From the sequence record KP085586: a DNA stretch of 50,109 nucleotides; one strand, given 5' to 3'. Below, piece after piece: positions 1-46,376 of this stretch (the stretch's first letter is position 1; each line of letters opens with the position of its first letter). This stretch comes from Shigella phage pSf-2. Both the position numbers and the translations under genes were made by a program. The notes below the pieces were generated by a model. It was not told the origin of the DNA. It saw nothing but the letters and a program-made list of their open reading frames with translations, and ran no database searches.

Positions 1-204
1 GATGTTATCACTGAGATCGCAAAGAAGAACAAAGGGCGCGCGCCTATTCATAGTATTGTTGCAAAGTGCCGGAACGTTACGCCGTTCAACGGTCAACAGA
101 AAGTATCTGAGCGAATCGACAGCCTTCTGATTACGCTCGAAGAGATGAACTACACTTGCCGCATTGATGATATTGTTTTCATCAATCCTCGACTGATGGG
201 TTAA
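1..204 (+). CDS. 3' end of a CDS entering from the window start (5' truncated); hypothetical, possibly the C-terminus of the P-loop protein at 48745..50109 if the molecule is circular
   Basis: Frame 1 open from nt 1 to TAA at 202-204 (...INPRLMG*); no start codon inside window. Confidence 0.4.
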   Translation, partial: DVITEIAKKNKGRAPIHSIVAKCRNVTPFNGQQKVSERIDSLLITLEEMNYTCRIDDIVFINPRLMG

Positions 205-208
205 TTAT

Positions 209-616
209 ATGCTTCTTCTTTTAGATCTGTTCAGGTTCTGCGAAGGTTACGACAAATACACTCGTCAGCACATAGCGAAATTTATATACGCCCACAAGGA
301 AAGTGAGCGATTTGCTAAGGCCGCCGGGATGACTCACCGTGAATTTACAAGCGCGCTATCTAAGGAGTTTTGCGCTCGTTGCGTTACTGATGGTTACTTG
401 GATCGTAAGGATGGATTTTACTGGTGCAAGGGAAAGATCAAGCGCCCGGTAATGATGAAGCTGATGTGTATTGATGGCTACAACAATCGATATACGTGGG
501 AAATGATGCATATTGGAGAAATGAGTGATGAGGAATTGTTTGGCGAACGTAGAAACGTTGATAGATCGGAACGTCGAATTGTGCGCAAGACTCCAGCTTA
601 CGAAAGAAGAATTTGA
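209..616 (+). CDS. hypothetical protein (3' part doubtful)
   Basis: 135-codon ORF; C-terminal 30 aa low complexity and overlapped by 528..728 in another frame. Confidence 0.3.
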   Translation: MLLLLDLFRFCEGYDKYTRQHIAKFIYAHKESERFAKAAGMTHREFTSALSKEFCARCVTDGYLDRKDGFYWCKGKIKRPVMMKLMCIDGYNNRYTWEMMHIGEMSDEELFGERRNVDRSERRIVRKTPAYERRI

Positions 617-728
617 ACAAGGATTGCTCAGTCTATTGCTTACTTCTATGAGGGCAAATAACGACAGTGAGCACAATCTTTGCGATCAGGAGGGCGAATT
701 ACTCCTCCATGTAAAAAGGCACAAATAA
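528..728 (+). CDS. hypothetical small protein
   Basis: ATG 528 with ggaga 8 nt upstream; ends at TAA just before terminator hairpin; overlaps 209..616. Confidence 0.35.
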   Translation: MRNCLANVETLIDRNVELCARLQLTKEEFEQGLLSLLLTSMRANNDSEHNLCDQEGELLLHVKRHK

Positions 729-731
729 GAA

Positions 732-754
732 AGGAGGCTAAGCCTCCTTTTTTT
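732..754. terminator. Rho-independent terminator (hairpin aggaggc-taa-gcctcct plus T8), between convergent genes
   Basis: 7-bp GC stem, 3-nt loop, T-run on + strand; stop of minus-strand spanin gene lies in the stem. Confidence 0.6.
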
Positions 755-1142
755 CGCCCTTACGAATTGAAAAATAAACCAGCAACAGACCAATGAGAAC
801 GAGGGTCCAACCAACTATAGGATCATACCAGTTTCCGGGCTTAGTCACAGTGATGCTTTCAGCGTTAACCGTGTTGGCCTGAATGGTTGACACTTCAATT
901 GACTTCTTCACGGAAGAGTCAACCTTTCCTACATTGGACTTTTCAACTTTAACATCTCGCTTATCTTCGGATTTTGCGGTTACTCCTGCTAATTGCTTTG
1001 TGTTCTCCTCCCCAATCTGTGCTGTAACTTCAGGCTTAGATCCTATTAAACCGCTCAGGGCAGATGCCGTCGAGCAACCTGATAGAGAAATAACACCAAC
1101 AGACACTACAATCGCAACGCACTTTTTCTTCAGTTTCATCAT
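738..1142 (-). CDS. unimolecular spanin-like lysis protein (OM lipoprotein with C-terminal TM anchor)
   Basis: N-terminal lipobox LSGC after signal peptide, C-terminal hydrophobic helix [13 protein letters not shown]; directly downstream of endolysin; architecture as in T1 u-spanin. Confidence 0.65.
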
Positions 1143-1627
1143 AATTCCTTAACGCAATACGCGTATTCTTCAGCGCGTCTGTTCTTGAGTCCTCTAGACA
1201 CTTCGCGCTTTTTGGTTTTTGGGTTGTAGTAGTATACCCATCGCCATAACTGATTGCACGCTTCCCTGTGCTTACCCTGATTTATTAGCTTAAGCATTGT
1301 AGAAGATCCGAACGCGCCAGTACCAACGTTGAAAGTAAAGCTATACAATGACGCGCGCATCGTTACAGGAATATCAACATTCACCTTTTTGTCTACGTAT
1401 CTCTGAGCAACGCCGATGTGTTTTATCAACAAAGCATCGCATTCTCGCTTAGTGTATTTCTTACCAGGTATGACGTCCGGCCCGGTTATTCCGCTGCATA
1501 CGGTAGGGACTCCGGCGATATCGTAATAAACCTCGTATTCTACACCTTCGATTCGTTCCAGTAGGGTAGGCGTCAACGTCAAAGCTGCCCCGATCGATGC
1601 GCCTATAACGTTATTTTTTAAACTCAT
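1139..1627 (-). CDS. endolysin, GH24 phage lysozyme (possible SAR type)
   Basis: Catalytic E-x8-D-x5-T pattern ([22 protein letters not shown]); hydrophobic N-terminus; ATGA overlap with spanin gene. Confidence 0.8.
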
Positions 1628-1842
1628 TATCTCCTCCTGATCTTAAGCGCCTTATTTAGATCGCCATCGTTTAACGCTTCCTGAATTGCCTTGCTATCGC
1701 GATACTTCCAGTACGCTCCCCAAGCGCCAAAAAGCAGAAAGCAAATGAATGTAGCGCCAGCAATATAAAGTTGACCTGTCGCCGCCCCCACCAACGAAGC
1801 ACCGCCCGTGCTTGACGTAGCTGCTGTTAAAAATTCTTTCAT
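1627..1842 (-). CDS. holin (start moved to internal ATG)
   Basis: 71 aa, one strong TM segment, charged C-terminus KALKIRRR; ggtgag SD 5 nt before ATG 1842; track start 1869 is TTG. Confidence 0.55.
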
Positions 1843-1979
1843 AATCTCACCATATATTTTTTTGAACAAGTGAGTCGATTTTAACCTTCAAATTTACTTG
1901 ATACAACGCAAAAAGGCCAGCATGTAAATCATGCCAGCCTGTAAGGTGATGAATGATATTGTTAATCTATCTCAATAAA

Positions 1980-2138
1980 TTACAGGTAGTAACCATTCAG
2001 AGGTGCTTGGATTACTGAGCCTCTACCGTCGTAAATCTCAAACAATCCCCAACCGAAATCATAACCAACACTATAGATCTGATTTACGCGGAATGGAAGT
2101 GTTTTGGAGTTATTTCGGATGCACTTAACTCGTTTCAT
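1980..2138 (-). CDS. hypothetical small protein (52 aa, not in ORF track)
   Basis: aaagagg SD before ATG 2138; sits 57 nt downstream of motif copy 2196..2213 with tatagt box. Confidence 0.35.
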   Translation of the reverse strand: MKRVKCIRNNSKTLPFRVNQIYSVGYDFGWGLFEIYDGRGSVIQAPLNGYYL

Positions 2139-2195
2139 GATATGTAGCCTCTTTGTTTTTGATGTTGTTACTATACCCGAATCCCTTCGGGCGTT

Positions 2196-2213
2196 TTTAT
2201 CAATTAGTGCGAT
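2196..2213 (-). promoter_or_regulatory. degenerate copy of 18-bp dyad motif (tttatcaattagtgcgat on + strand)
   Basis: 15/18 match to tttagcaattcgtgctat; tatagt 22 nt downstream on minus strand. Confidence 0.4.
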
Positions 2214-3355
2214 CCTGTCATTTCTGGACGGTAGATGAATCGACCTATCTCACCAAATTGCTTGTCGTAAACGATTACCGCCGCCTGACGATATGAGCGC
2301 CACCCGCCGCGCGCGGCGTATGCATCCTTCGCTCCTAACTGACCGTGAACCTCATCGATACCTAACGAGTGTTCAGTGATTGTCTGATGATGCCAGTGAC
2401 CGCTATGAGTATACACATACTTGCTCTCTCCGAAGTCTGCACGGAAGTCTGCCGCCATCGCTGCAAGTCGCGTGTCTGCCTTTTTCATAGTGTGCCCGTG
2501 AGTGTATCCCAATAAGGTGTTTCCCCATCGAGTCTTATGCAGAATCATAGGGCTAACGTCAACGAATACTCGCGGCTCGTCTTCATAATATGCCGACATT
2601 GCAGCACGTAGCCAAATCATCCCGGCCTGGTCGTGGTTCCCTTCAATAATCTGAACCTCGACTTCTTTGTGTTTCATAAGCATTTTGTCGATAGCGCGAC
2701 GCACAGAACGGATCGCAACATGCACCAATTTTGCGTATCGTGAATCCTGATCCAGAACGTGACCGCTTGCCGGGGTAACAGCATCAAGACCGTCCGAGTG
2801 AAGGAAGTCACCGCCAATTAACAGAACAGCCTTCTCTGCGTTAGGGGCAATATCGATCGCGTAATTGAAGAAGTCGCCAAGCACTTTTTCAGCTACGTCG
2901 GTAGAGTAGTTCTCTCCGCATTCATGCTTGTGAGCAAGCGCACCAATATGAAGATCGAATACCGGATAGAGTGCCAGCTTACCAATCTCTGTCGTAAGCC
3001 CTTGCGAGGTTAGTAGCTCGGTTGGCTTTGCTCGCGGCAGGTCTTCACAGAATGCAATACGCGCCGCTTCCATCATTGCCGCAATCTTCTCACGGTCCTG
3101 ATCGGTTTTTACCCAGCGCACTACCTCGGTCCCATCGCCGCGAATCATCGTCGACGTGCCTTTTACCATGAATCCCTCTGGCACGTTTTTAGCAACATGC
3201 TCGTTACCGTGAAAATGACCTTCTTTTGCCAGCTTTGCATGGCGCGCTTCAACAGTGCGAATGTGCATACCGTATTTTTCCGCGATTTCGCGAAGTGTTA
3301 GGCCGCTCATGCGCTCTTCAATAAGTTGCTCGGTGGTGATTTTAGCTTGTGACAT
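2204..3355 (-). CDS. HTH domain fused to calcineurin-like metallophosphoesterase
   Basis: N-terminal HTH (LTLREIAEKYGMHIRTV); phosphoesterase motifs FDLHIG, GGDFLHSDG, EGNHD, GYTHGH, HSGHWHH. Confidence 0.75.
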   Translation of the reverse strand: MSQAKITTEQLIEERMSGLTLREIAEKYGMHIRTVEARHAKLAKEGHFHGNEHVAKNVPEGFMVKGTSTMIRGDGTEVVRWVKTDQDREKIAAMMEAARIAFCEDLPRAKPTELLTSQGLTTEIGKLALYPVFDLHIGALAHKHECGENYSTDVAEKVLGDFFNYAIDIAPNAEKAVLLIGGDFLHSDGLDAVTPASGHVLDQDSRYAKLVHVAIRSVRRAIDKMLMKHKEVEVQIIEGNHDQAGMIWLRAAMSAYYEDEPRVFVDVSPMILHKTRWGNTLLGYTHGHTMKKADTRLAAMAADFRADFGESKYVYTHSGHWHHQTITEHSLGIDEVHGQLGAKDAYAARGGWRSYRQAAVIVYDKQFGEIGRFIYRPEMTGSH

Positions 3356-13360: not shown

Positions 13361-13391
13361 TGCGTTTATCTCCTTCGTTTACGATGAATCC

Positions 13392-13419
13392 ATTATAGCC
13401 ATTAACAGCGTTTAGTCAA
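13392..13419 (-). promoter_or_regulatory. sigma70-like promoter (TTGACT-16-TATAAT) for recombination operon
   Basis: Near-consensus hexamers 31 nt upstream of ATG 13360. Confidence 0.5.
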
Positions 13420-13639
13420 TCGGATACATGTAATTGGTGTGTAATAGCGTGTCTATATCGCTCAAGTTACAACCAGCATTAACGGAATCAATGGCTTAAG
13501 TCTATTTTTATGTGATGTCTACTGTGTAATACTTGTAACCGCTTTTTCTTAGAAATACAGGGATAGCTACAAGTAGAATCCATATTGATTAAATTTTGAA
13601 CATATATGATAGAAATTTGACGAATCAATCAAATCACCA

Positions 13640-13810
13640 GTTACACGATAGACAACTGTTACACAACAATAATTATATATATAAAGCTAAAATTAAATAT
13701 TATCTATCTATATATATTATATATAGTTTTTATCATATCCCTCTGCGGTCGGGTAGGGTGGATTTTGTAACACCCGTTCCGGTTACAAAAATAGACACCT
13801 GTTACACGAA
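13640..13810. repeat. AT-rich divergent control region with direct repeats TAGACAnCTGTTACAC (x2) and inverted repeat TTTTGTAAC-N10-GTTACAAAA
   Basis: Repeats at about 13644-13660 and 13790-13806; palindrome at about 13765-13792; (TA)n tract 13700-13725. Confidence 0.45.
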
Positions 13811-13828
13811 AAAATTGTAATCGCACTA

Positions 13829-13857
13829 TTGCAATAAAAGTAAATGCGACATACAAT
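13829..13857 (+). promoter_or_regulatory. sigma70-like promoter (TTGCAA-17-TACAAT) for lipoprotein gene
   Basis: Hexamers with 17-bp spacer, 29 nt before ATG 13887. Confidence 0.45.
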
Positions 13858-13886
13858 GCAATCACACTAACGACGAGGACATACAA

Positions 13887-14117
13887 ATGAAAAAGTTAAT
13901 CACCATTATCACCGCTGCATTCATCCTGACTGGTTGTGCTCAGAATCTTAAAAATGGCGACTGCGTTACTTACGCGTACGGCTCTTGCATGATGCGATTC
14001 GTTGATGGTAAAAAGGTTCCGGCTGGCGAAATTGACATGCGATTCAAAGGTCTGTCATCCGACGACGATCAGGGTAACTTTAGCGGCAAGGTATCAATCA
14101 AAACTAAAGAGTGGTAA
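13887..14117 (+). CDS. small lipoprotein, Cor-like superinfection-exclusion candidate
   Basis: Signal peptide with lipobox LTGC; 76 aa; lies next to J gene on opposite strand as cor does in FhuA-dependent phages. Confidence 0.55.
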   Translation: MKKLITIITAAFILTGCAQNLKNGDCVTYAYGSCMMRFVDGKKVPAGEIDMRFKGLSSDDDQGNFSGKVSIKTKEW

Positions 14118-24742: not shown

Positions 24743-24760
24743 ATAGCACTTTTTGTTAAA
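24743..24760 (+). promoter_or_regulatory. 18-bp dyad motif copy (atagcactttttgttaaa), opposite orientation to flanking late genes
   Basis: 21 nt upstream of G-like start 24721 on other strand; followed by accaatcaggag leader. Confidence 0.55.
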
Positions 24761-24792
24761 AGCAAAGAGTGCAAAGTTGATACGATGATTTT

Positions 24793-28507: not shown

Positions 28508-28525
28508 ATAGCACTTTTTGTTAAA
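28508..28525 (+). promoter_or_regulatory. 18-bp dyad motif copy (atagcactttttgttaaa) inside a minus-strand TTGACG-16-TATTAT element
   Basis: Motif occupies spacer of sigma70-like hexamers 28527-28532 and 28505-28510. Confidence 0.5.
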
Positions 28526-28544
28526 GCGTCAAAGTGTTTTTATG

Positions 28545-33065: not shown

Positions 33066-34634
33066 TTACCGCTTAACCATCCCGGCGAGCCGCTTCATTC
33101 TCTCGATAGGATCATCAATGGTCAGCAATTCGATGTTCGCCGCATCCATGAAGTTATCGACGATATCATCATGCGGATGTGTGTCATCGTAAGTGAAGGC
33201 GCTGTGTTCAGCGATAATTTCAGCAAGCATAGGGTGCTCTTCTGGCAGAACCACACGCCCGGCTTTAATAACTGGCTGAGCATCCATAGCTCGGGTAACT
33301 TTGTCTTTGTTACGCTGCAACGGAGTGATAGAGATCGGAGTCTTTTTCCTGAGGTTCTGGATAAGGCCCGTACCGCTCGCTTTATCTTCCACGTAGATTT
33401 TTCGAAGCACGCCCATTGATTTATTGTGTCTCCATGCCTGATTAACGAAAGCGGTAAATTGTTTCTCCATATCCGGCGCTTCCCACTTACCGCGAATGCC
33501 GTCAATAAAGTAAACCTTATCGTTCTTCTTACCCCACAAGCAAAAGACTGTGTAGTCGTTTAGCTCGCCTGTCTTCTGAGCGGTATCGGCAGTGATGAAA
33601 CGGTAGTCGTACTTACCCGGATCTGGTTCGTCAGCGTCAAGGCTGCTGCCGTAATAAGTCCACCATTCCGAGTTAAACACGGAGCCACCAAGCGCGATCG
33701 GCTTCTGCTGATACTGAGAGTCAAAGGTGTACTGGTCAGCTTCGCGAAGCGCTAACAGGTCATGTACACTCTCCTTACTGGGCCAGAACGAGTAATGCTT
33801 GACGCCATCAAGTTCGACATACTCAGACGATAAAACGTCGCGCTCGAAGTAAGGTTGTAACCAGTCAGGAAGCGTCTTTCCGTATTCTTCCGTAACCAGC
33901 GCCGGGATTGAGATCTGGTCAAACTCAATACCCATCCCGCCATTCATCATGAACCATGTTGAATCCTGCGCGTGCAGCCTCTGCTGAATCGCAATAATTG
34001 GCGTCTCGTTGTGCATACGACGCGATCGAATGGTGTTCTTCAGTAGCATATGAGTACGCTCACGCTTAACCTTTGAGAACATATCATCAGGCTTATCGAT
34101 ATCGTCGAGCATCACCATACCGGAGAATCCCGGCATCATGTAGCCACCACGCGAACCAGTAATACGACCGCCAGCCGCTGCGGATATTAGCTCAAACCAA
34201 ACCTTTCCATCGCTATTAAGGACTTGCATCTCTTCGTCCTTCGACGTGCCGAATTTGCAGGGCCATAATTCTTGGAACTCGTTGCTGCTGATAATCTCAC
34301 GCACGCGCTTACTGTTACGCTTAACCAGACTGTCGGCAAACGACACGTTAAGGTTTCGCACCTTCTTACACTTGAGCATCGCGTACACCGGGAGATGTAT
34401 TGAGAACACCTCGGTTTTACCGGAGCCTGGCGTAACGTTAAAGATAGTATTACCGCGTCGGCCTGCAATAATTTCCTCCACTTCGTGGCAGAGGTAAAGG
34501 TGATGCCAGTTAGGCTGGAACTGCTGAGCCTGCATAAGCTGGAACCAGATCCGAATCATTTTTTCGAAATTGGCCTCGCTCATTTTCTTGATCGCTAACT
34601 TCTGAGTTGCGTCGAGTTCTTCCCATTGAATCAT
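33066..34634 (-). CDS. terminase large subunit
   Basis: 522 aa; ATPase N-domain, acidic nuclease-type motifs in C-half; upstream of portal. Confidence 0.85.
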   Translation of the reverse strand: MIQWEELDATQKLAIKKMSEANFEKMIRIWFQLMQAQQFQPNWHHLYLCHEVEEIIAGRRGNTIFNVTPGSGKTEVFSIHLPVYAMLKCKKVRNLNVSFADSLVKRNSKRVREIISSNEFQELWPCKFGTSKDEEMQVLNSDGKVWFELISAAAGGRITGSRGGYMMPGFSGMVMLDDIDKPDDMFSKVKRERTHMLLKNTIRSRRMHNETPIIAIQQRLHAQDSTWFMMNGGMGIEFDQISIPALVTEEYGKTLPDWLQPYFERDVLSSEYVELDGVKHYSFWPSKESVHDLLALREADQYTFDSQYQQKPIALGGSVFNSEWWTYYGSSLDADEPDPGKYDYRFITADTAQKTGELNDYTVFCLWGKKNDKVYFIDGIRGKWEAPDMEKQFTAFVNQAWRHNKSMGVLRKIYVEDKASGTGLIQNLRKKTPISITPLQRNKDKVTRAMDAQPVIKAGRVVLPEEHPMLAEIIAEHSAFTYDDTHPHDDIVDNFMDAANIELLTIDDPIERMKRLAGMVKR

Positions 34635-34672: not shown

Positions 34673-35197
34673 TTAAAGCATGTCAAGAATACTGTTTACA
34701 GCCTCTTTCATTGCGTCCTCAGTGGTGGCGACTACTGTCGATGCGGAAGCTGCCGAGTTTTCGATATTGATTGAGGCTGGCTTATCGATTCCGAGATCCT
34801 TACCGATAAAGGAGGCGTTAATAACACCGTTGGCGGCAAGCTGGAATTTTTGCTCATTTATTACCGACTCAACAAACTCCATAACCTCACTGTATTCTTC
34901 CTCTCGCTTCCACTTAATGATTGCGGCCTCGCTTGCACCGATAAATAGTCGGTATCCGGTCCAGGTGAAGACGCGCGGCTTATGAACTAGCGATTCATAA
35001 ACGCCACCCTGAAAGCTGGCTGATTCTGACGCCTTGATTGCGTTGTCCTCGGCCCATTCGAAATACTTCACTGAAAGATCGAATAGTTGCTCTGGCGTCA
35101 TCGCTCTGTTTTTCGCGAGTACAGTGCCGAATTTTTTCTTGTATAGCTCTTTGAAATTACCTCCCTGGACTACGGGAGCGTTCTTAGGTTCACTCAT
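34673..35197 (-). CDS. terminase small subunit candidate (start moved to internal ATG)
   Basis: Upstream of TerL; aaagagga SD before ATG 35197. Confidence 0.5.
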   Translation of the reverse strand: MSEPKNAPVVQGGNFKELYKKKFGTVLAKNRAMTPEQLFDLSVKYFEWAEDNAIKASESASFQGGVYESLVHKPRVFTWTGYRLFIGASEAAIIKWKREEEYSEVMEFVESVINEQKFQLAANGVINASFIGKDLGIDKPASINIENSAASASTVVATTEDAMKEAVNSILDML

Positions 35198-35249
35198 AAA
35201 TAAATCCTCTTTGTTTAACATTTAGTGTTATTTTACCATATTGCAGGCA

Positions 35250-41309: not shown

Positions 41310-41366
41310 GTTTGTATCCTCGTTCGTTGTCGATGGGGTTACTATATCGCAACCCCGATATTGTGT

Positions 41367-42322: not shown

Positions 42323-42386
42323 GGTGATTCCTCTGATTGGTATCTCGTTTCGATGGGGTAACTATATCAAGATACCCCGATTCGTT

Positions 42387-42404
42387 TTTAACAATTCGTG
42401 CTAT
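42387..42404 (-). promoter_or_regulatory. 18-bp dyad motif copy (tttaacaattcgtgctat)
   Basis: Overlaps TAG stop of 42401..42871; minus strand: 22 nt then tatagt flanked by ggggta/tacccc. Confidence 0.7.
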
Positions 42405-43068: not shown

Positions 43069-43126
43069 CTTTGTTTCCTCTGTATCGTTTCGATGATAAG
43101 ATAATACCCGATCCGCTAGACCGGGC

Positions 43127-43144
43127 TTTAACAAAAAGTGCTAT
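43127..43144 (-). promoter_or_regulatory. 18-bp dyad motif copy (tttaacaaaaagtgctat)
   Basis: Overlaps TAG stop of 43141..43461; minus strand: 22 nt then tattat. Confidence 0.7.
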
Positions 43145-43473: not shown

Positions 43474-43989
43474 TCACAGTCCGCACTTTTCGATATGCGC
43501 TTTCATCTGGCGAACCAGGTCGCGCACGGTGCTTACAGCCACGTCACCTTTCTCAAGGTCATCAATATCAGGAACAAACGAGTCCAGGCAGTCGGACAGG
43601 CTAACTTTTTTCCGGCTACGGCGCTTCTTCACCGGAACCTCTTCATCAGTAACGGTAACGGTTATCATTGTGATTGCCGACTCATTCCGGCCCACCTTCA
43701 CCTTTGCCATCTTGCCGTACTTGCAGAAGTGCCGGGTAATAATCGGAGTGATGAAAGCAGACTTAAATCGCTTCTCCACCTCCTTCCCGTTCGAGGTCAA
43801 CCATGTTGATACACCTCGCTCAATCTCTTCCTCTGTAATATCCCGATCTCGGAAGTAAAATTTTACCGCCTCTCTCGCCATATCATCAGCCAAGAAAGAG
43901 AACTCGGTCATGCCTTTGTCGCGATACATTGCGTCGCAGGTTAGGCGAATCATGTCGGTGATTTTTAATTCCTGACTGGTATTGCTCAT
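43474..43989 (-). CDS. hypothetical protein, first gene of leftward early operon
   Basis: 171-codon ORF, basic patch KKRRSRKK. Confidence 0.55.
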   Translation of the reverse strand: MSNTSQELKITDMIRLTCDAMYRDKGMTEFSFLADDMAREAVKFYFRDRDITEEEIERGVSTWLTSNGKEVEKRFKSAFITPIITRHFCKYGKMAKVKVGRNESAITMITVTVTDEEVPVKKRRSRKKVSLSDCLDSFVPDIDDLEKGDVAVSTVRDLVRQMKAHIEKCGL

Positions 43990-44047
43990 AATATATCCTC
44001 TTTGTCTATTCGCGTGTAAATGGTGTCATAATGTGTCAACAATTGCC

Positions 44048-44076
44048 ATTGTGACATCTCGATGTAGAGCTGTCAA
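44048..44076 (-). promoter_or_regulatory. sigma70-like promoter candidate (TTGACA-17-CACAAT) for leftward early operon
   Basis: Consensus -35 with 17-bp spacer, 58 nt upstream of ATG 43989; TGTCA/TGACA inverted repeats nearby. Confidence 0.4.
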
Positions 44077-44129
44077 TGCCTGCGAGCCAATTTTAAGCCG
44101 TGTAACATTTGTCTAGCTGTCTATAGCCA

Positions 44130-44390
44130 CTATAGAAATATATGGCTCTCAAAAAAAGTACTGTATATATAAACACTCAGATAGAAATATGCCAACAGTA
44201 CGCTAGACAATGTAAGACAGCTATACACAACTATTACAATATAATTATCTATATATATAAATAAAAAAAACACTATATATATTATATATATACATATATC
44301 TATATGTATATTGTGAGGCGTCACAGTGTGTATTTTTGTCACAAGTGCGATTCTAGACAAATATTACAGTCGTGACAAGTTAAAGTGTAA
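44130..44390. repeat. AT-rich tract with (TA)n/ATATA runs and TAGACA / GTCACAAG repeats; candidate origin or early control region
   Basis: Long ATATATA-type tracts at 44160-44320; repeated ctagacaa, gtcacaag/gtgacaag words. Confidence 0.45.
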
Positions 44391-44393
44391 TCG

Positions 44394-44411
44394 ATAGCAC
44401 TTTTTGCTAAA
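44394..44411 (+). promoter_or_regulatory. 18-bp dyad motif copy (atagcactttttgctaaa)
   Basis: First rightward copy; no clear -10 at 22 bp. Confidence 0.5.
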
Positions 44412-44598
44412 AATGGAGATGAATGCCAGGCGAACCGGGTAACACCAATTCCTCCCTCTCACAATCATTGCATTCTCAGCAACAAATCAACCAACTGTTG
44501 CACACCATGCAATAATCACGTTTCATCATTCGTAATCAATAACAATCAAGATTATTCCACCTATTCCAGTATTGATTGAATAATGAGCAATTATTGGA

Positions 44599-44616
44599 AT
44601 AGCATTTTTTGCTAAC
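44599..44616 (+). promoter_or_regulatory. 18-bp dyad motif copy, variant (atagcattttttgctaac)
   Basis: tatgat about 23 nt downstream, then caaccaatcaggag leader to ATG 44675. Confidence 0.6.
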
Positions 44617-44674
44617 GACTTAGCAAGGCCGATTGGGTATGATTCATCACATCAACCAATCAGGAGCAATCGAC

Positions 44675-44818
44675 ATGACAACTGCAAACATCAACGCAAC
44701 AATTAATCGTTACGAACACATCTATCGCGTAGCGCTGTTCTCTGACATGGCGTTAGCTAACAAGGCGAAGTTAATAATCGACAAACTGAATCACTACAAA
44801 AAGGAGATCGAAAAATGA
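44675..44818 (+). CDS. hypothetical small protein (start moved to internal ATG)
   Basis: aggag SD 8 nt before ATG 44675; track start 44633. Confidence 0.4.
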   Translation: MTTANINATINRYEHIYRVALFSDMALANKAKLIIDKLNHYKKEIEK

Positions 44819-45519
44819 AGTTGATTTGGTCGCTATTCGACGGTTCCGGCCTGGCAGGTCATGAACTGGCAAAGCAAGGTCATAAGGTGATGTGCTTCAA
44901 CTTTGACGGGGCAGATCACGGAGATTACGCAAAGTACAATGCCCGGGTAGAGCATCCGAACATTGAGTATGTGAACGTCTTCATTGATGAGAAGTTCGAA
45001 CGTGATGCGATCGCTGGTGTGTATGGCAAACCTGATTTCATCATGGCTTTCCCACCATGCACTGACCTAGCTGTTAGTGGTGCTCGCCATTTTGCCAGCA
45101 AGCGTGAACGTGATCCGTTATTCCATGAGAAGGCTGTTGCCACCGCTCGGATTGCTGCTAATATTGGCGAAGCTATGGGCGTGACGTACATCATTGAGAA
45201 TCCGGTTAGCGTCCTGTCATCTGCCTGGAGAAAACCAGATCACTCCTTTAATCCCTGGGAGTATGGCGGCTATCTTCCTGAGAATGACTCACATCCCTGG
45301 TTCCCGATGTATATTGCGCCGCGCGATGCTTACCCTAAGAAGACGTGTCTTTGGACCTCGGACGATTTTGTCATGCCGGAGAGAAATCCAGTAAGCCTGC
45401 CTGACGGGTACTCTGCACAGCAAAACAAGCTGGGCGGCAAGTCTGCCAAAACTAAGCTGATACGATCCCTGTCGCCGCGTGGATTTTTCAAAGCGATCGC
45501 AAATAGCACTTTTTGTTAA
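44815..45519 (+). CDS. minimal C5-cytosine methyltransferase-like protein
   Basis: Motif I-like LFDGSGLAG, PC motif FPPCTDLAVSG, ENV-like IIENPVS with canonical spacing; only 234 aa; aaggag SD. Confidence 0.5.
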   Translation: MKLIWSLFDGSGLAGHELAKQGHKVMCFNFDGADHGDYAKYNARVEHPNIEYVNVFIDEKFERDAIAGVYGKPDFIMAFPPCTDLAVSGARHFASKRERDPLFHEKAVATARIAANIGEAMGVTYIIENPVSVLSSAWRKPDHSFNPWEYGGYLPENDSHPWFPMYIAPRDAYPKKTCLWTSDDFVMPERNPVSLPDGYSAQQNKLGGKSAKTKLIRSLSPRGFFKAIANSTFC

Positions 45520-46300: not shown

Positions 46301-46318
46301 ATAGCACGAATTGCTAAA
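46301..46318 (+). promoter_or_regulatory. 18-bp dyad motif copy (atagcacgaattgctaaa)
   Basis: 22 nt (with hairpin ccccga/tcgggg) then tatagt; caaccaatcaggag leader to ATG 46377. Confidence 0.7.
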
Positions 46319-46376
46319 CGCCCCGAAGGGAATCGGGGTATAGTAAACAACATCAACCAATCAGGAGAATCGCCAG

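Follow-up and report, generated by a model that had tools for sequence, protein, structure and literature searches.

The divergent gap at 43990-44674 of Shigella phage pSf-2: a probable packaging start with divergent early promoters

What function does the long gap between the two early gene arrays of a T1-like phage serve? We addressed this question for positions 43990-44674 of a DNA of 50,109 nucleotides (nt; sequence record KP085586), called the window here, which is the complete genome of Shigella phage pSf-2, a Tunavirus (T1-like). BLAST matches of the gap and its flanks came only from T1-like phages (Tunavirus, Drexlerviridae; 80-95% identity), and the left-hand gene encodes a protein with 100% identity to pSf2_069 of Shigella phage pSf-2. 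The gap runs exactly from an open reading frame (ORF) at 43474..43989 on the minus strand to the ATG at 44675 on the plus strand, which makes 685 non-coding nt. The initial annotation, made from the letters alone, had its coordinates exactly right when it described an AT-rich divergent region between early arrays; GC content is 0.18-0.23 at 44200-44349, against 0.42-0.50 elsewhere. We estimate a probability of about 0.65 that the gap is a genome-end region of the T1 type, combining a packaging start with divergent early promoters. Such a region, with the packaging site (pac) and divergent early promoters, was already known for T1, and the repeat treated below had been described but left unexplained in the family. 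New here are the conservation map by segments, the transfer of a mapped cut to 44445|44446, a fixed geometry between repeat and hexamer, a repeat copy without promoter, and the paralogy of the AT-rich module. Nothing in them overturns existing knowledge.

Conservation along the gap

How is conservation distributed over these 685 nt? The gap was aligned from ten Tunavirus, with Chapo, SH2 and IME167 added later, and conservation was measured as the mean pairwise identity per segment among the ten Tunavirus:

5' end of the left gene: 0.56
43990-44100: 0.63
44101-44231: 0.65
44232-44313, AT core: 0.87
44314-44391: 0.67
44392-44446, from DR1 to the cut: 0.92
44447-44530, nested inverted-repeat block: 0.90
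44531-44618, IR2 and DR2: 0.87
44619-44674: 0.59

Since the identities differ between segments, the gap is composite. This escaped the initial annotation, which took the gap as one unit and put its emphasis on the AT tract. The strongest signal lies to the right of that tract, in an invariant block (44392-44618) that reaches from DR1 (44394) to DR2 (44617), two copies of a direct repeat, and is conserved above the neighbouring coding DNA. Even Klebsiella Webervirus has a recognisable counterpart of the final ~80 nt of the block. Variability marks the left half of the gap, which falls into at least three sequence types (pSf-2-like, T1-like, DELF2/Chapo-like), with an AT-rich core in all of them. 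Two arrangements of words were found within the block:

44468..44512, no strand: nested inverted repeat TTGCA-N6-GCAAC-N13-GTTGC-N6-TGCAA, arms nearly invariant, loops variable
44553..44601, no strand: array TATTCC, TATTCC ... G(G/A)ATA ... GGAATA, abutting DR2, in Tunavirus and Klebsiella Webervirus

The second of these has ~78% identity to 59-62 Klebsiella phage records. Its words are spaced near-equally in Tunavirus and Webervirus and the DNA between them differs; it is probably a protein-binding array, for terminase or a regulator.

Could the gap lack any specific role, being AT-rich spacer DNA of low complexity and a mosaic recombination joint that separates the two gene arrays? The left half does differ between groups, and invariance begins exactly at DR1, as for a recombination joint. 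However, the genome is compact elsewhere and yet has 685 non-coding nt here, conservation is 87-92% in the AT core and the block against 56-67% nearby, the architecture is conserved in another genus, and the word and octamer statistics given below also speak against such a spacer. We find this explanation hardly credible.

A further question is whether the block is transcribed into a small non-coding RNA, which would start at about 44475 from a weak promoter, GTAACA-18-AATCAT, and end at an AT-rich hairpin with T6 at about 44610. Folding z-scores of -2.2 to -3.1, stems that are nearly invariant beside variable loops, the hairpin followed by TTTTTT, and the invariant position of the promoter match all fit such an RNA. 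Yet the promoter scores only 8/12, the terminator stem is too poor in G-C pairs to pass the scan, no Rfam match was found at E up to 1, and RNAalifold gave 0 compensatory pairs in 12 sequences (covariation term +0.2); invariance at the level of sequence fits protein-DNA contacts better. A small RNA here is very improbable. An RNA element in the gap was dropped altogether, as Rfam, folding and RNAalifold supported neither a known family nor covariation. The small ORFs of the gap (23-76 aa) were likewise rejected as genes and treated as non-coding because none is kept as an ORF across the aligned groups.

The probable packaging start

Is there a packaging site in the invariant block, and where would the cut fall? 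An answer comes from phage Chapo (MT682715), the one member of the genus with a pac cut published at base level, whose genome announcement reports headful packaging, a 'pac cut at pos. 68/69', and identical ends in about 20% of reads, on a record whose start was chosen to align with reference phages (PMC7471380). This cut aligns to 44445|44446 of the window, ...CCAGGCGAACCGGGTAACAC|CAATTCC..., inside the invariant block, and the 20-mer adjoining it is unique in the genome.

44426..44446, no strand: predicted pac cleavage neighbourhood CCAGGCGAACCGGGTAACAC|C, with the cut at 44445|44446 by homology

The initial annotation had offered a packaging site as one of three alternatives, next to an origin and a master early control region, and had proposed a comparison with terminase cuts. 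The comparison places the cut derived from Chapo read ends within the gap, so the packaging alternative gains by homology to a site with a mapped series-initiating cut.

The openings of other records are in line with this position. Position 1 of both T1 and Chapo corresponds to window 44513, the base after the nested inverted repeat, and both run leftward; the T1 records NC_005833 and MK213796 carry a repeat_region at 1..2800, annotated as terminal redundancy. SH2 has its first base at window 44445 and its last at 44446, which places the opening of its record at the very bond of the Chapo cut. The opening lies at 44425|44426 in the records of IME167 and Henu5_2 and at 44459|44460 in that of Shfl1, in each case within 35 nt of the cut and at a position other than that of T1. 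In Webervirus, the mtp records derived with PhageTerm all start in the homologous gap, at a point that directly follows the AT core and precedes a DR1-like element by 12 nt. The SU57 paper places the T1 pac in the untranslated genome-end region; the papers on Sfin-1, Sfin-2/6 and KanT1 state no pac position. pSf-2 itself encodes a terminase pair of headful type: the small terminase (34673..35221, minus strand) matches PF16677 GP3_package (E=8.5e-10; P22 gp3-like), and the large terminase (33066..34634, minus strand) matches PF17289 Terminase_6C.

By homology, then, the invariant block would contain pac, and packaging most likely starts at about 44445 and runs leftward. The small terminase would recognise sequences in 44392-44618 on concatemeric DNA, and the large terminase would make the series-initiating cut at or near 44445|44446. 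Packaging would proceed leftward in window coordinates, as the T1 annotation suggests, through the leftward early genes and then the terminase and structural genes. Each head would receive slightly more than one genome, with about 2.8 kb of terminal redundancy, roughly from 44445 down to 41650. If so, the opening point of the pSf-2 genome is fixed, along with the ~2.8 kb that are probably terminally redundant, and the few hundred bases needed for packaging by a transducing or engineered construct are indicated. T1-like phages matter both as common laboratory contaminants and as therapy candidates.

How close is the likeness to T1 and Chapo? The block is ~90% identical between pSf-2 and T1 (AY216660, NC_005833, MK213796) or Chapo, all have divergent arrays of small early genes on both sides, and the terminase is of the same type. 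Unlike these, pSf-2 has another sequence type in the left half of the gap (43990-44230) and in the N-terminal part of the adjacent gene. Among better known systems, the SPP1 pac is composite (pacL-pacC-pacR), and the P1 pac has repeated hexamers that flank the cut and are controlled by methylation. By analogy, the pSf-2 site would share with them a cut within a conserved segment of ~200 bp or more, repeated or symmetric words on both sides, an adjoining AT-rich and probably bent stretch, and headful packaging in one direction. In contrast to them, it has no sequence similarity to either and lies ~9 kb from the small terminase gene (terS), in a control region of early genes. The Dam/Dcm sites beside the cut, which are GATC in some relatives and CCAGG at 44426, lack conservation. 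The Dcm site CCAGG occupies 44426-44430, where the IME167 and Henu5_2 records are opened; GATC follows the cut directly in T1, SH2, IME167, ISF001 and IME18 and is absent in pSf-2; and a methylase gene lies 370 nt from the cut region. Control of pac cleavage by methylation, as in P1, is conceivable by analogy, with the reservation that the sites are not conserved.

Two candidates for terminase signals were rejected. AATCA/CAATCA words are weakly enriched (6 in 290 nt; other windows reach 5). A P22-like pac, AAGATTTATCTG as used for phage TLS, is resembled by AAGATTATTCC at 44548, but its AAG is not conserved.

Several points weigh against the packaging interpretation. The position 44445|44446 is carried over from Chapo, and its source is a short genome announcement. 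Position 1 of T1 and the Chapo cut are 68 nt apart, and in Webervirus the termini fall at a different point of the gap, so the exact pac site may be imprecise or lineage-specific. The record ends of SH2, IME167 and Shfl1 are of undocumented provenance. Unlike in P22 or SPP1, terS is ~9 kb from the candidate pac. Finally, conservation of the block could equally be explained by an operator or another function at the DNA level.

The last point leads to the explanation that the block has a regulatory role only. The segment 44392-44618 would be an operator or enhancer complex for the rightward promoter, with TTGCA/GCAAC and TATTCC/GGAATA as sites and DR1 as a decoy; pac would lie elsewhere, and the record ends would be a matter of convention. 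The block does abut DR2 and hold symmetric word arrays, part of it travels with DR2 into Webervirus, many record starts follow the T1 convention, and in P22-like systems pac lies inside terS. A P22-like pac was indeed what the authors of the TLS study looked for (PMC11447400). However, the Chapo cut was derived from read ends and not from convention, the records of SH2, IME167, Henu5_2 and Shfl1 open no more than 35 nt from it and not where that of T1 does, the PhageTerm-based Webervirus starts fall in the same gap, and the T1 terminal repeat is annotated from the block. We therefore regard a purely regulatory block as improbable and keep to the packaging start.

Candidate divergent promoters and the 21-nt repeat

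Which elements would drive the two early arrays? On the leftward side, three candidates were found:

44048..44076, minus strand: TTGACA (44076..44071)-17-CACAAT (44053..44048), with TG upstream of the -10, scan score 10/12 (PL1)
44310..44281, minus strand: TATACA-18-TATAAT, inside the AT module, 10/12, conserved
44350..44378, minus strand: TTGTCA-17-TAGAAT, 10/12, overlapping a GTGACAAG word and the box at 44353 (PL2)

All three pair sigma-70 hexamers at 16-18 nt spacing with conservation in relatives: each is positionally conserved in T1, and the third, PL2, also in Chapo (TTGATT-17-TATGAT in T1, TTGTAA-17-TACCAT in Chapo). The TTGACA-17-CACAAT promoter aimed left was already noticed in the initial annotation, and it was recovered at 44076..44048 with the TG extension in addition. 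Its TTGACA and a TGTnACAnT stretch are kept in T1 within surroundings only about 63% identical, and it is independently annotated as a promoter in phage SA32RD. The number of promoter-like matches in the region counts against a promoter function, being no higher than in shuffles (7 vs 4.5 +/- 2.1); for this reason the credibility of PL1 rests on its conservation in T1 and the SA32RD annotation.

On the rightward side a repeat is involved. TLS and other T1-like phages have a 21-nt intergenic direct repeat, aaATAGCACnnnTTGnTAAAA, whose function the TLS paper leaves open between stoperator, enhancer and UP element (PMC11447400); the same paper lists the origin, the early promoters and the role of the repeat in T1-like phages as open questions. 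The Drexlerviridae repeat, ATAGCACnnnTTGnTAAAA, has 26 copies in the window against 2.1 expected, and what the initial annotation saw as two motif copies aimed right are its copies at 44394 (0 mismatches) and 44599 (3 mismatches):

44394..44412, plus strand: DR1, perfect repeat copy ATAGCACTTTTTGCTAAAA, at the left edge of the invariant block and invariant in all aligned phages
44599..44617, plus strand: DR2, repeat copy ATAGCATTTTTTGCTAACG, at the head of the first rightward gene's cassette
44638..44643, plus strand: TATGAT, the -10-like hexamer belonging to the DR2 cassette, 23 nt downstream of TTGCTA, with a predicted transcription start near 44650

Is there any regularity downstream of the repeat? 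For every copy, the stretch 11-32 nt beyond TTGNTA was searched for hexamers that have A as their second and T as their sixth letter. The best one of the TAnnnT type (TATAGT, TATTAT, TATGAT, TATAAT and so on) stands exactly 22 nt after TTGNTA in 18 of the 26 copies, and the start codon follows ~75 nt after the repeat in such cassettes. In the T1 stretches examined, 5 of the 6 copies associated with a gene keep this spacing, and it recurs in two Klebsiella phages. The cassettes show no -35-like sequence at 17 nt, and a 22-nt spacer is too long for TTGNTA to be a normal -35 element. From the fixed geometry and the missing -35 we infer that the repeat is a factor site that replaces -35 recognition: the cassettes would be promoters that need a factor at the palindrome TAGCA-N5-TGCTA, centred near -42. 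That factor is hypothetical, which again weighs on the side of doubt.

Class II CRP/FNR promoters and those of Mu Mor/C (-43.5) are activator-dependent, lack a -35 and have a dyad overlapping -42. The analogy would lie in a good -10, the absence of a -35 at 17 nt, and TAGCA-N5-TGCTA centred at about -42; the difference is that these sites have no sequence relation to the pSf-2 repeat and that the activator of the latter is hypothetical. A role of the small repeat hairpin at the RNA level may be an alternative to an activator. By eye, three further assignments of the repeat were rejected: a sigma-54 promoter (TGGCAC-N5-TTGC; spacing 2 nt short, GG missing), an extended -10 (no T at the sixth position), and TTGNTA as a normal -35 (spacer 22 nt).

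DR2, on the plus strand and 76 nt before the ATG at 44675, qualifies as a DR cassette. Its geometry recurs in Klebsiella phages 1513 and mtp30, and the -10 column reads TATGAT, TATAGT or TATGGT in relatives; it appears to be the only convincing rightward promoter element. DR1 matches the repeat in sequence only: it has no downstream gene, no TAnnnT hexamer at 22 nt in pSf-2 or T1, and no -10 hexamer in any aligned phage, and it lies 33 nt before the predicted pac cut. As in TLS, both copies match the consensus and point with transcription, and DR2 stands 76 nt before the start codon (PMC11447400); the pSf-2 repeat differs in its fixed 22 nt to TAnnnT and in that DR1 is perfect and has neither a -10 nor a gene.

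Transcription would thus be started leftward by the host sigma-70 RNA polymerase at one or more of 44076..44048, 44310..44281 and 44378..44350, and rightward at the DR2 cassette (repeat at 44599, -10 TATGAT at 44638-44643), where a factor at the repeat, centred near -42, would substitute for -35 recognition. At the level of consensus plus conservation, then, the master early control region of the initial annotation is supported by three leftward candidates and one DR cassette to the right. Useful handles for tests are the repeat-22 nt-TAnnnT geometry, the repeat without promoter beside the pac cut, and the duplicated AT/box module.

The proximity of DR1 to the cut allows a more speculative and rather doubtful proposal. 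A disabled DR promoter cassette may underlie the pac of T1-like phages, with the cleavage motif GGTAACAC| in place of the -10 of DR1. The factor that binds the 26 DR copies would then mark or time the initiation of packaging as well, and the two TATATA/box modules (44.2 and 13.7 kb) would act as hubs controlled by factors, either immediate-early promoters or twin origins. If this were true, one small set of DNA-binding proteins would couple early transcription, replication and packaging.

Other observations concern the cassettes and the left half of the gap. G+C-rich inverted repeats accompany DR cassettes at 46320-46338, 43125..43107, 42379..42355 and 41359..41335; they lie between repeat and -10 (e.g. 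GCCCCGAAGGGAATCGGGG) or flank the -10 with their arms (GGGGTA...TATAGT...TACCCC), their sequence varies from copy to copy with the symmetry kept, and they are not ordinary terminators because no T-run follows. Examples of the cassettes are 46301-46346 (plus), 43144..43100 (minus) and 42404..42360 (minus). Two good copies, at 24743-24761 and 28508-28526 on the plus strand, are opposite to the surrounding late genes, and one of them sits just ahead of where a minus-strand gene starts and faces away from that gene; they could be antisense promoters or chance survivors. In the diverged DNA of the left half there is one conserved island:

44159..44176, no strand: TACTGTATATATAAACAC, resembling a LexA box

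It is identical through ...AAACA in 9 of 10 Tunavirus, with flanks averaging 65% identity, and by our own comparison matches 17/20 positions of TACTGTATATATATACAGTA, the E. coli LexA-box consensus. Compared with the core CTGT-N8-ACAG, one half-site is perfect and the other is without its G (C in pSf-2, T in relatives). The island could be part of a promoter instead of a LexA box.

The AT-rich core, the 16-nt boxes and a second copy at 13.6 kb

What, then, is the AT tract for? The long ATATATA-type tracts of the initial annotation are present, with six TATATATA octamers in the gap. All ten octamers of the window fall in two gaps, the other four at 13.67-13.73 kb, and 0.62 would be expected by chance in the 50-kb window. 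The repeated words are likewise there: there are two copies of CTAGACAA (44203, 44353) and two of its reverse complement TTTGTCTA (44001, 44108). Genome-wide, TAGACAA is not over-represented (7 found vs 5.9 expected); 4 of these 7 copies lie within the 685 nt, where by our own arithmetic ~0.1 would be expected. With up to 3 mismatches allowed, the 16-nt box CTAGACAAATRTTACA has 6 matches where 0.9 would be expected, and five of these lie in this gap or that at 13.6 kb. Other words of the initial annotation fared less well: GTCACAAG (44338) and GTGACAAG (44372) are present, but GTSACAAG words are not significantly frequent (4 vs 3.1 expected), and the TGTCA...TGACA inverted repeats exist in a weak form, 72-77% complementary. 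The elements are arranged as follows:

44101..44116, minus strand: 16-nt box CTAGACAAATGTTACA, left arm of an inverted pair
44203..44219, plus strand: box copy CTAGACAATGTAAGACA
44223..44313, no strand: AT-rich module, degenerate box ATACACAACTATTACA and then the TATATA core, GC about 0.18-0.23, paralogue of 13648-13724
44353..44368, plus strand: 16-nt box CTAGACAAATATTACA, right arm of the inverted pair

The two arms (44116..44101, minus, and 44353-44368, plus) are 94% complementary and 236 nt apart, with the AT-rich segment between them. The TAGACA word is common to the 13.6-kb region, as the initial annotation held: 44223-44299 aligns with 13648-13724 at a score of 61, against 22 +/- 3 (maximum 34) in shuffles. 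This second long divergent gap (13380-13890) separates recE (minus) from the cor lipoprotein gene (plus) and combines a TATATA core with TAGACA-N4-GTTACAC boxes. Its conservation in T1, SH6 and SA32RD is high; ahead of cor it has a degenerate DR-like element, ATCGCACTATTGCAATAAAA, and then TTGCAA-17-TACAAT.

The module is not specific to pac, because it is present at two divergent promoter regions. Most likely, the TATATA core with its flanking boxes would form an architecture of promoter regions, or a site of factor binding, common to both divergent control regions; alternatively, it could be the unwinding element of one or two origins. A replication origin would have the core unwind and the inverted boxes bind an initiator, with near-DnaA-box words, e.g. 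CTATACACA at 44221, as further initiator sites and the 13.6-kb paralogue as a second origin, and it could coexist with promoters and pac. The extreme local AT content over 44200-44349 is what an unwinding element would show, the inverted boxes surround it, boxes and octamers are confined to two gaps, and the core is 87% conserved while the surroundings of the boxes diverge. The cumulative GC skew has its minimum at 44-45 kb, the primary origin of T7 is a promoter plus an AT-rich stretch, and the literature on T1-like phages has so far found no origin. However, the switch in gene strand at this point accounts for the skew minimum. The four to five boxes are in mixed orientation and form no tandem iteron array, no initiator gene lies next to them, the neighbouring protein shows no DNA-binding fold that could be recognised, the DnaA-like words are 8/9 in our own reading and not conserved in T1, the third group (DELF2, Chapo) has a different AT-rich sequence at the gap, and the module also occurs in the recE/cor gap. 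An origin here is thus possible and on balance unlikely, and a shared promoter-region module is preferred.

T1 has TATACA where pSf-2, SH6 and ISF001 have TAGACA, at the boxes of both divergent gaps (13649/13792/44354). In the few genomes compared, this may be a coordinated change of the recognition word. A swap of specificity between phage groups, in which the box words (TAGACAA here, CGATTAAC in T1) would have been exchanged along with the adjacent gene, was suspected and dropped: the left-gene proteins of pSf-2 and T1 are homologues in the same PHROG with 60% identity, the T1 box words hold the same TTAACAC half-word, and the third gap type (DELF2, Chapo) does not follow the protein type. 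Only 11 related loci were at hand for covariation of box and protein, too few for a test.

The genes around the gap complete the picture:

43474..43989, minus strand: first leftward early gene, pSf2_069, 171 aa, phrog_11083
44675..44818, plus strand: first rightward ORF, 47 aa, with AGGAG at 44662-44666, annotated in Sfin-3 and CLB_P3
44815..45519, plus strand: DNA methylase gene after the first rightward ORF, annotated as methylase in relatives

The 171-aa protein gave a confident structure model, yet no recognisable fold or domain. The initial annotation called the gap the only place where polarity switches among the early genes. The change from minus to plus does occur here, but other switches lie at about 7.7, 11.1-11.6, 13.4-13.9 and 15.1 kb. 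The ORFs of 150 aa or more at 15.1-39.5 kb all lie on the minus strand, as does the chain of probable genes at 40.2-43.99 kb, and the probable genes from 44675 to ~50 kb are on the plus strand.

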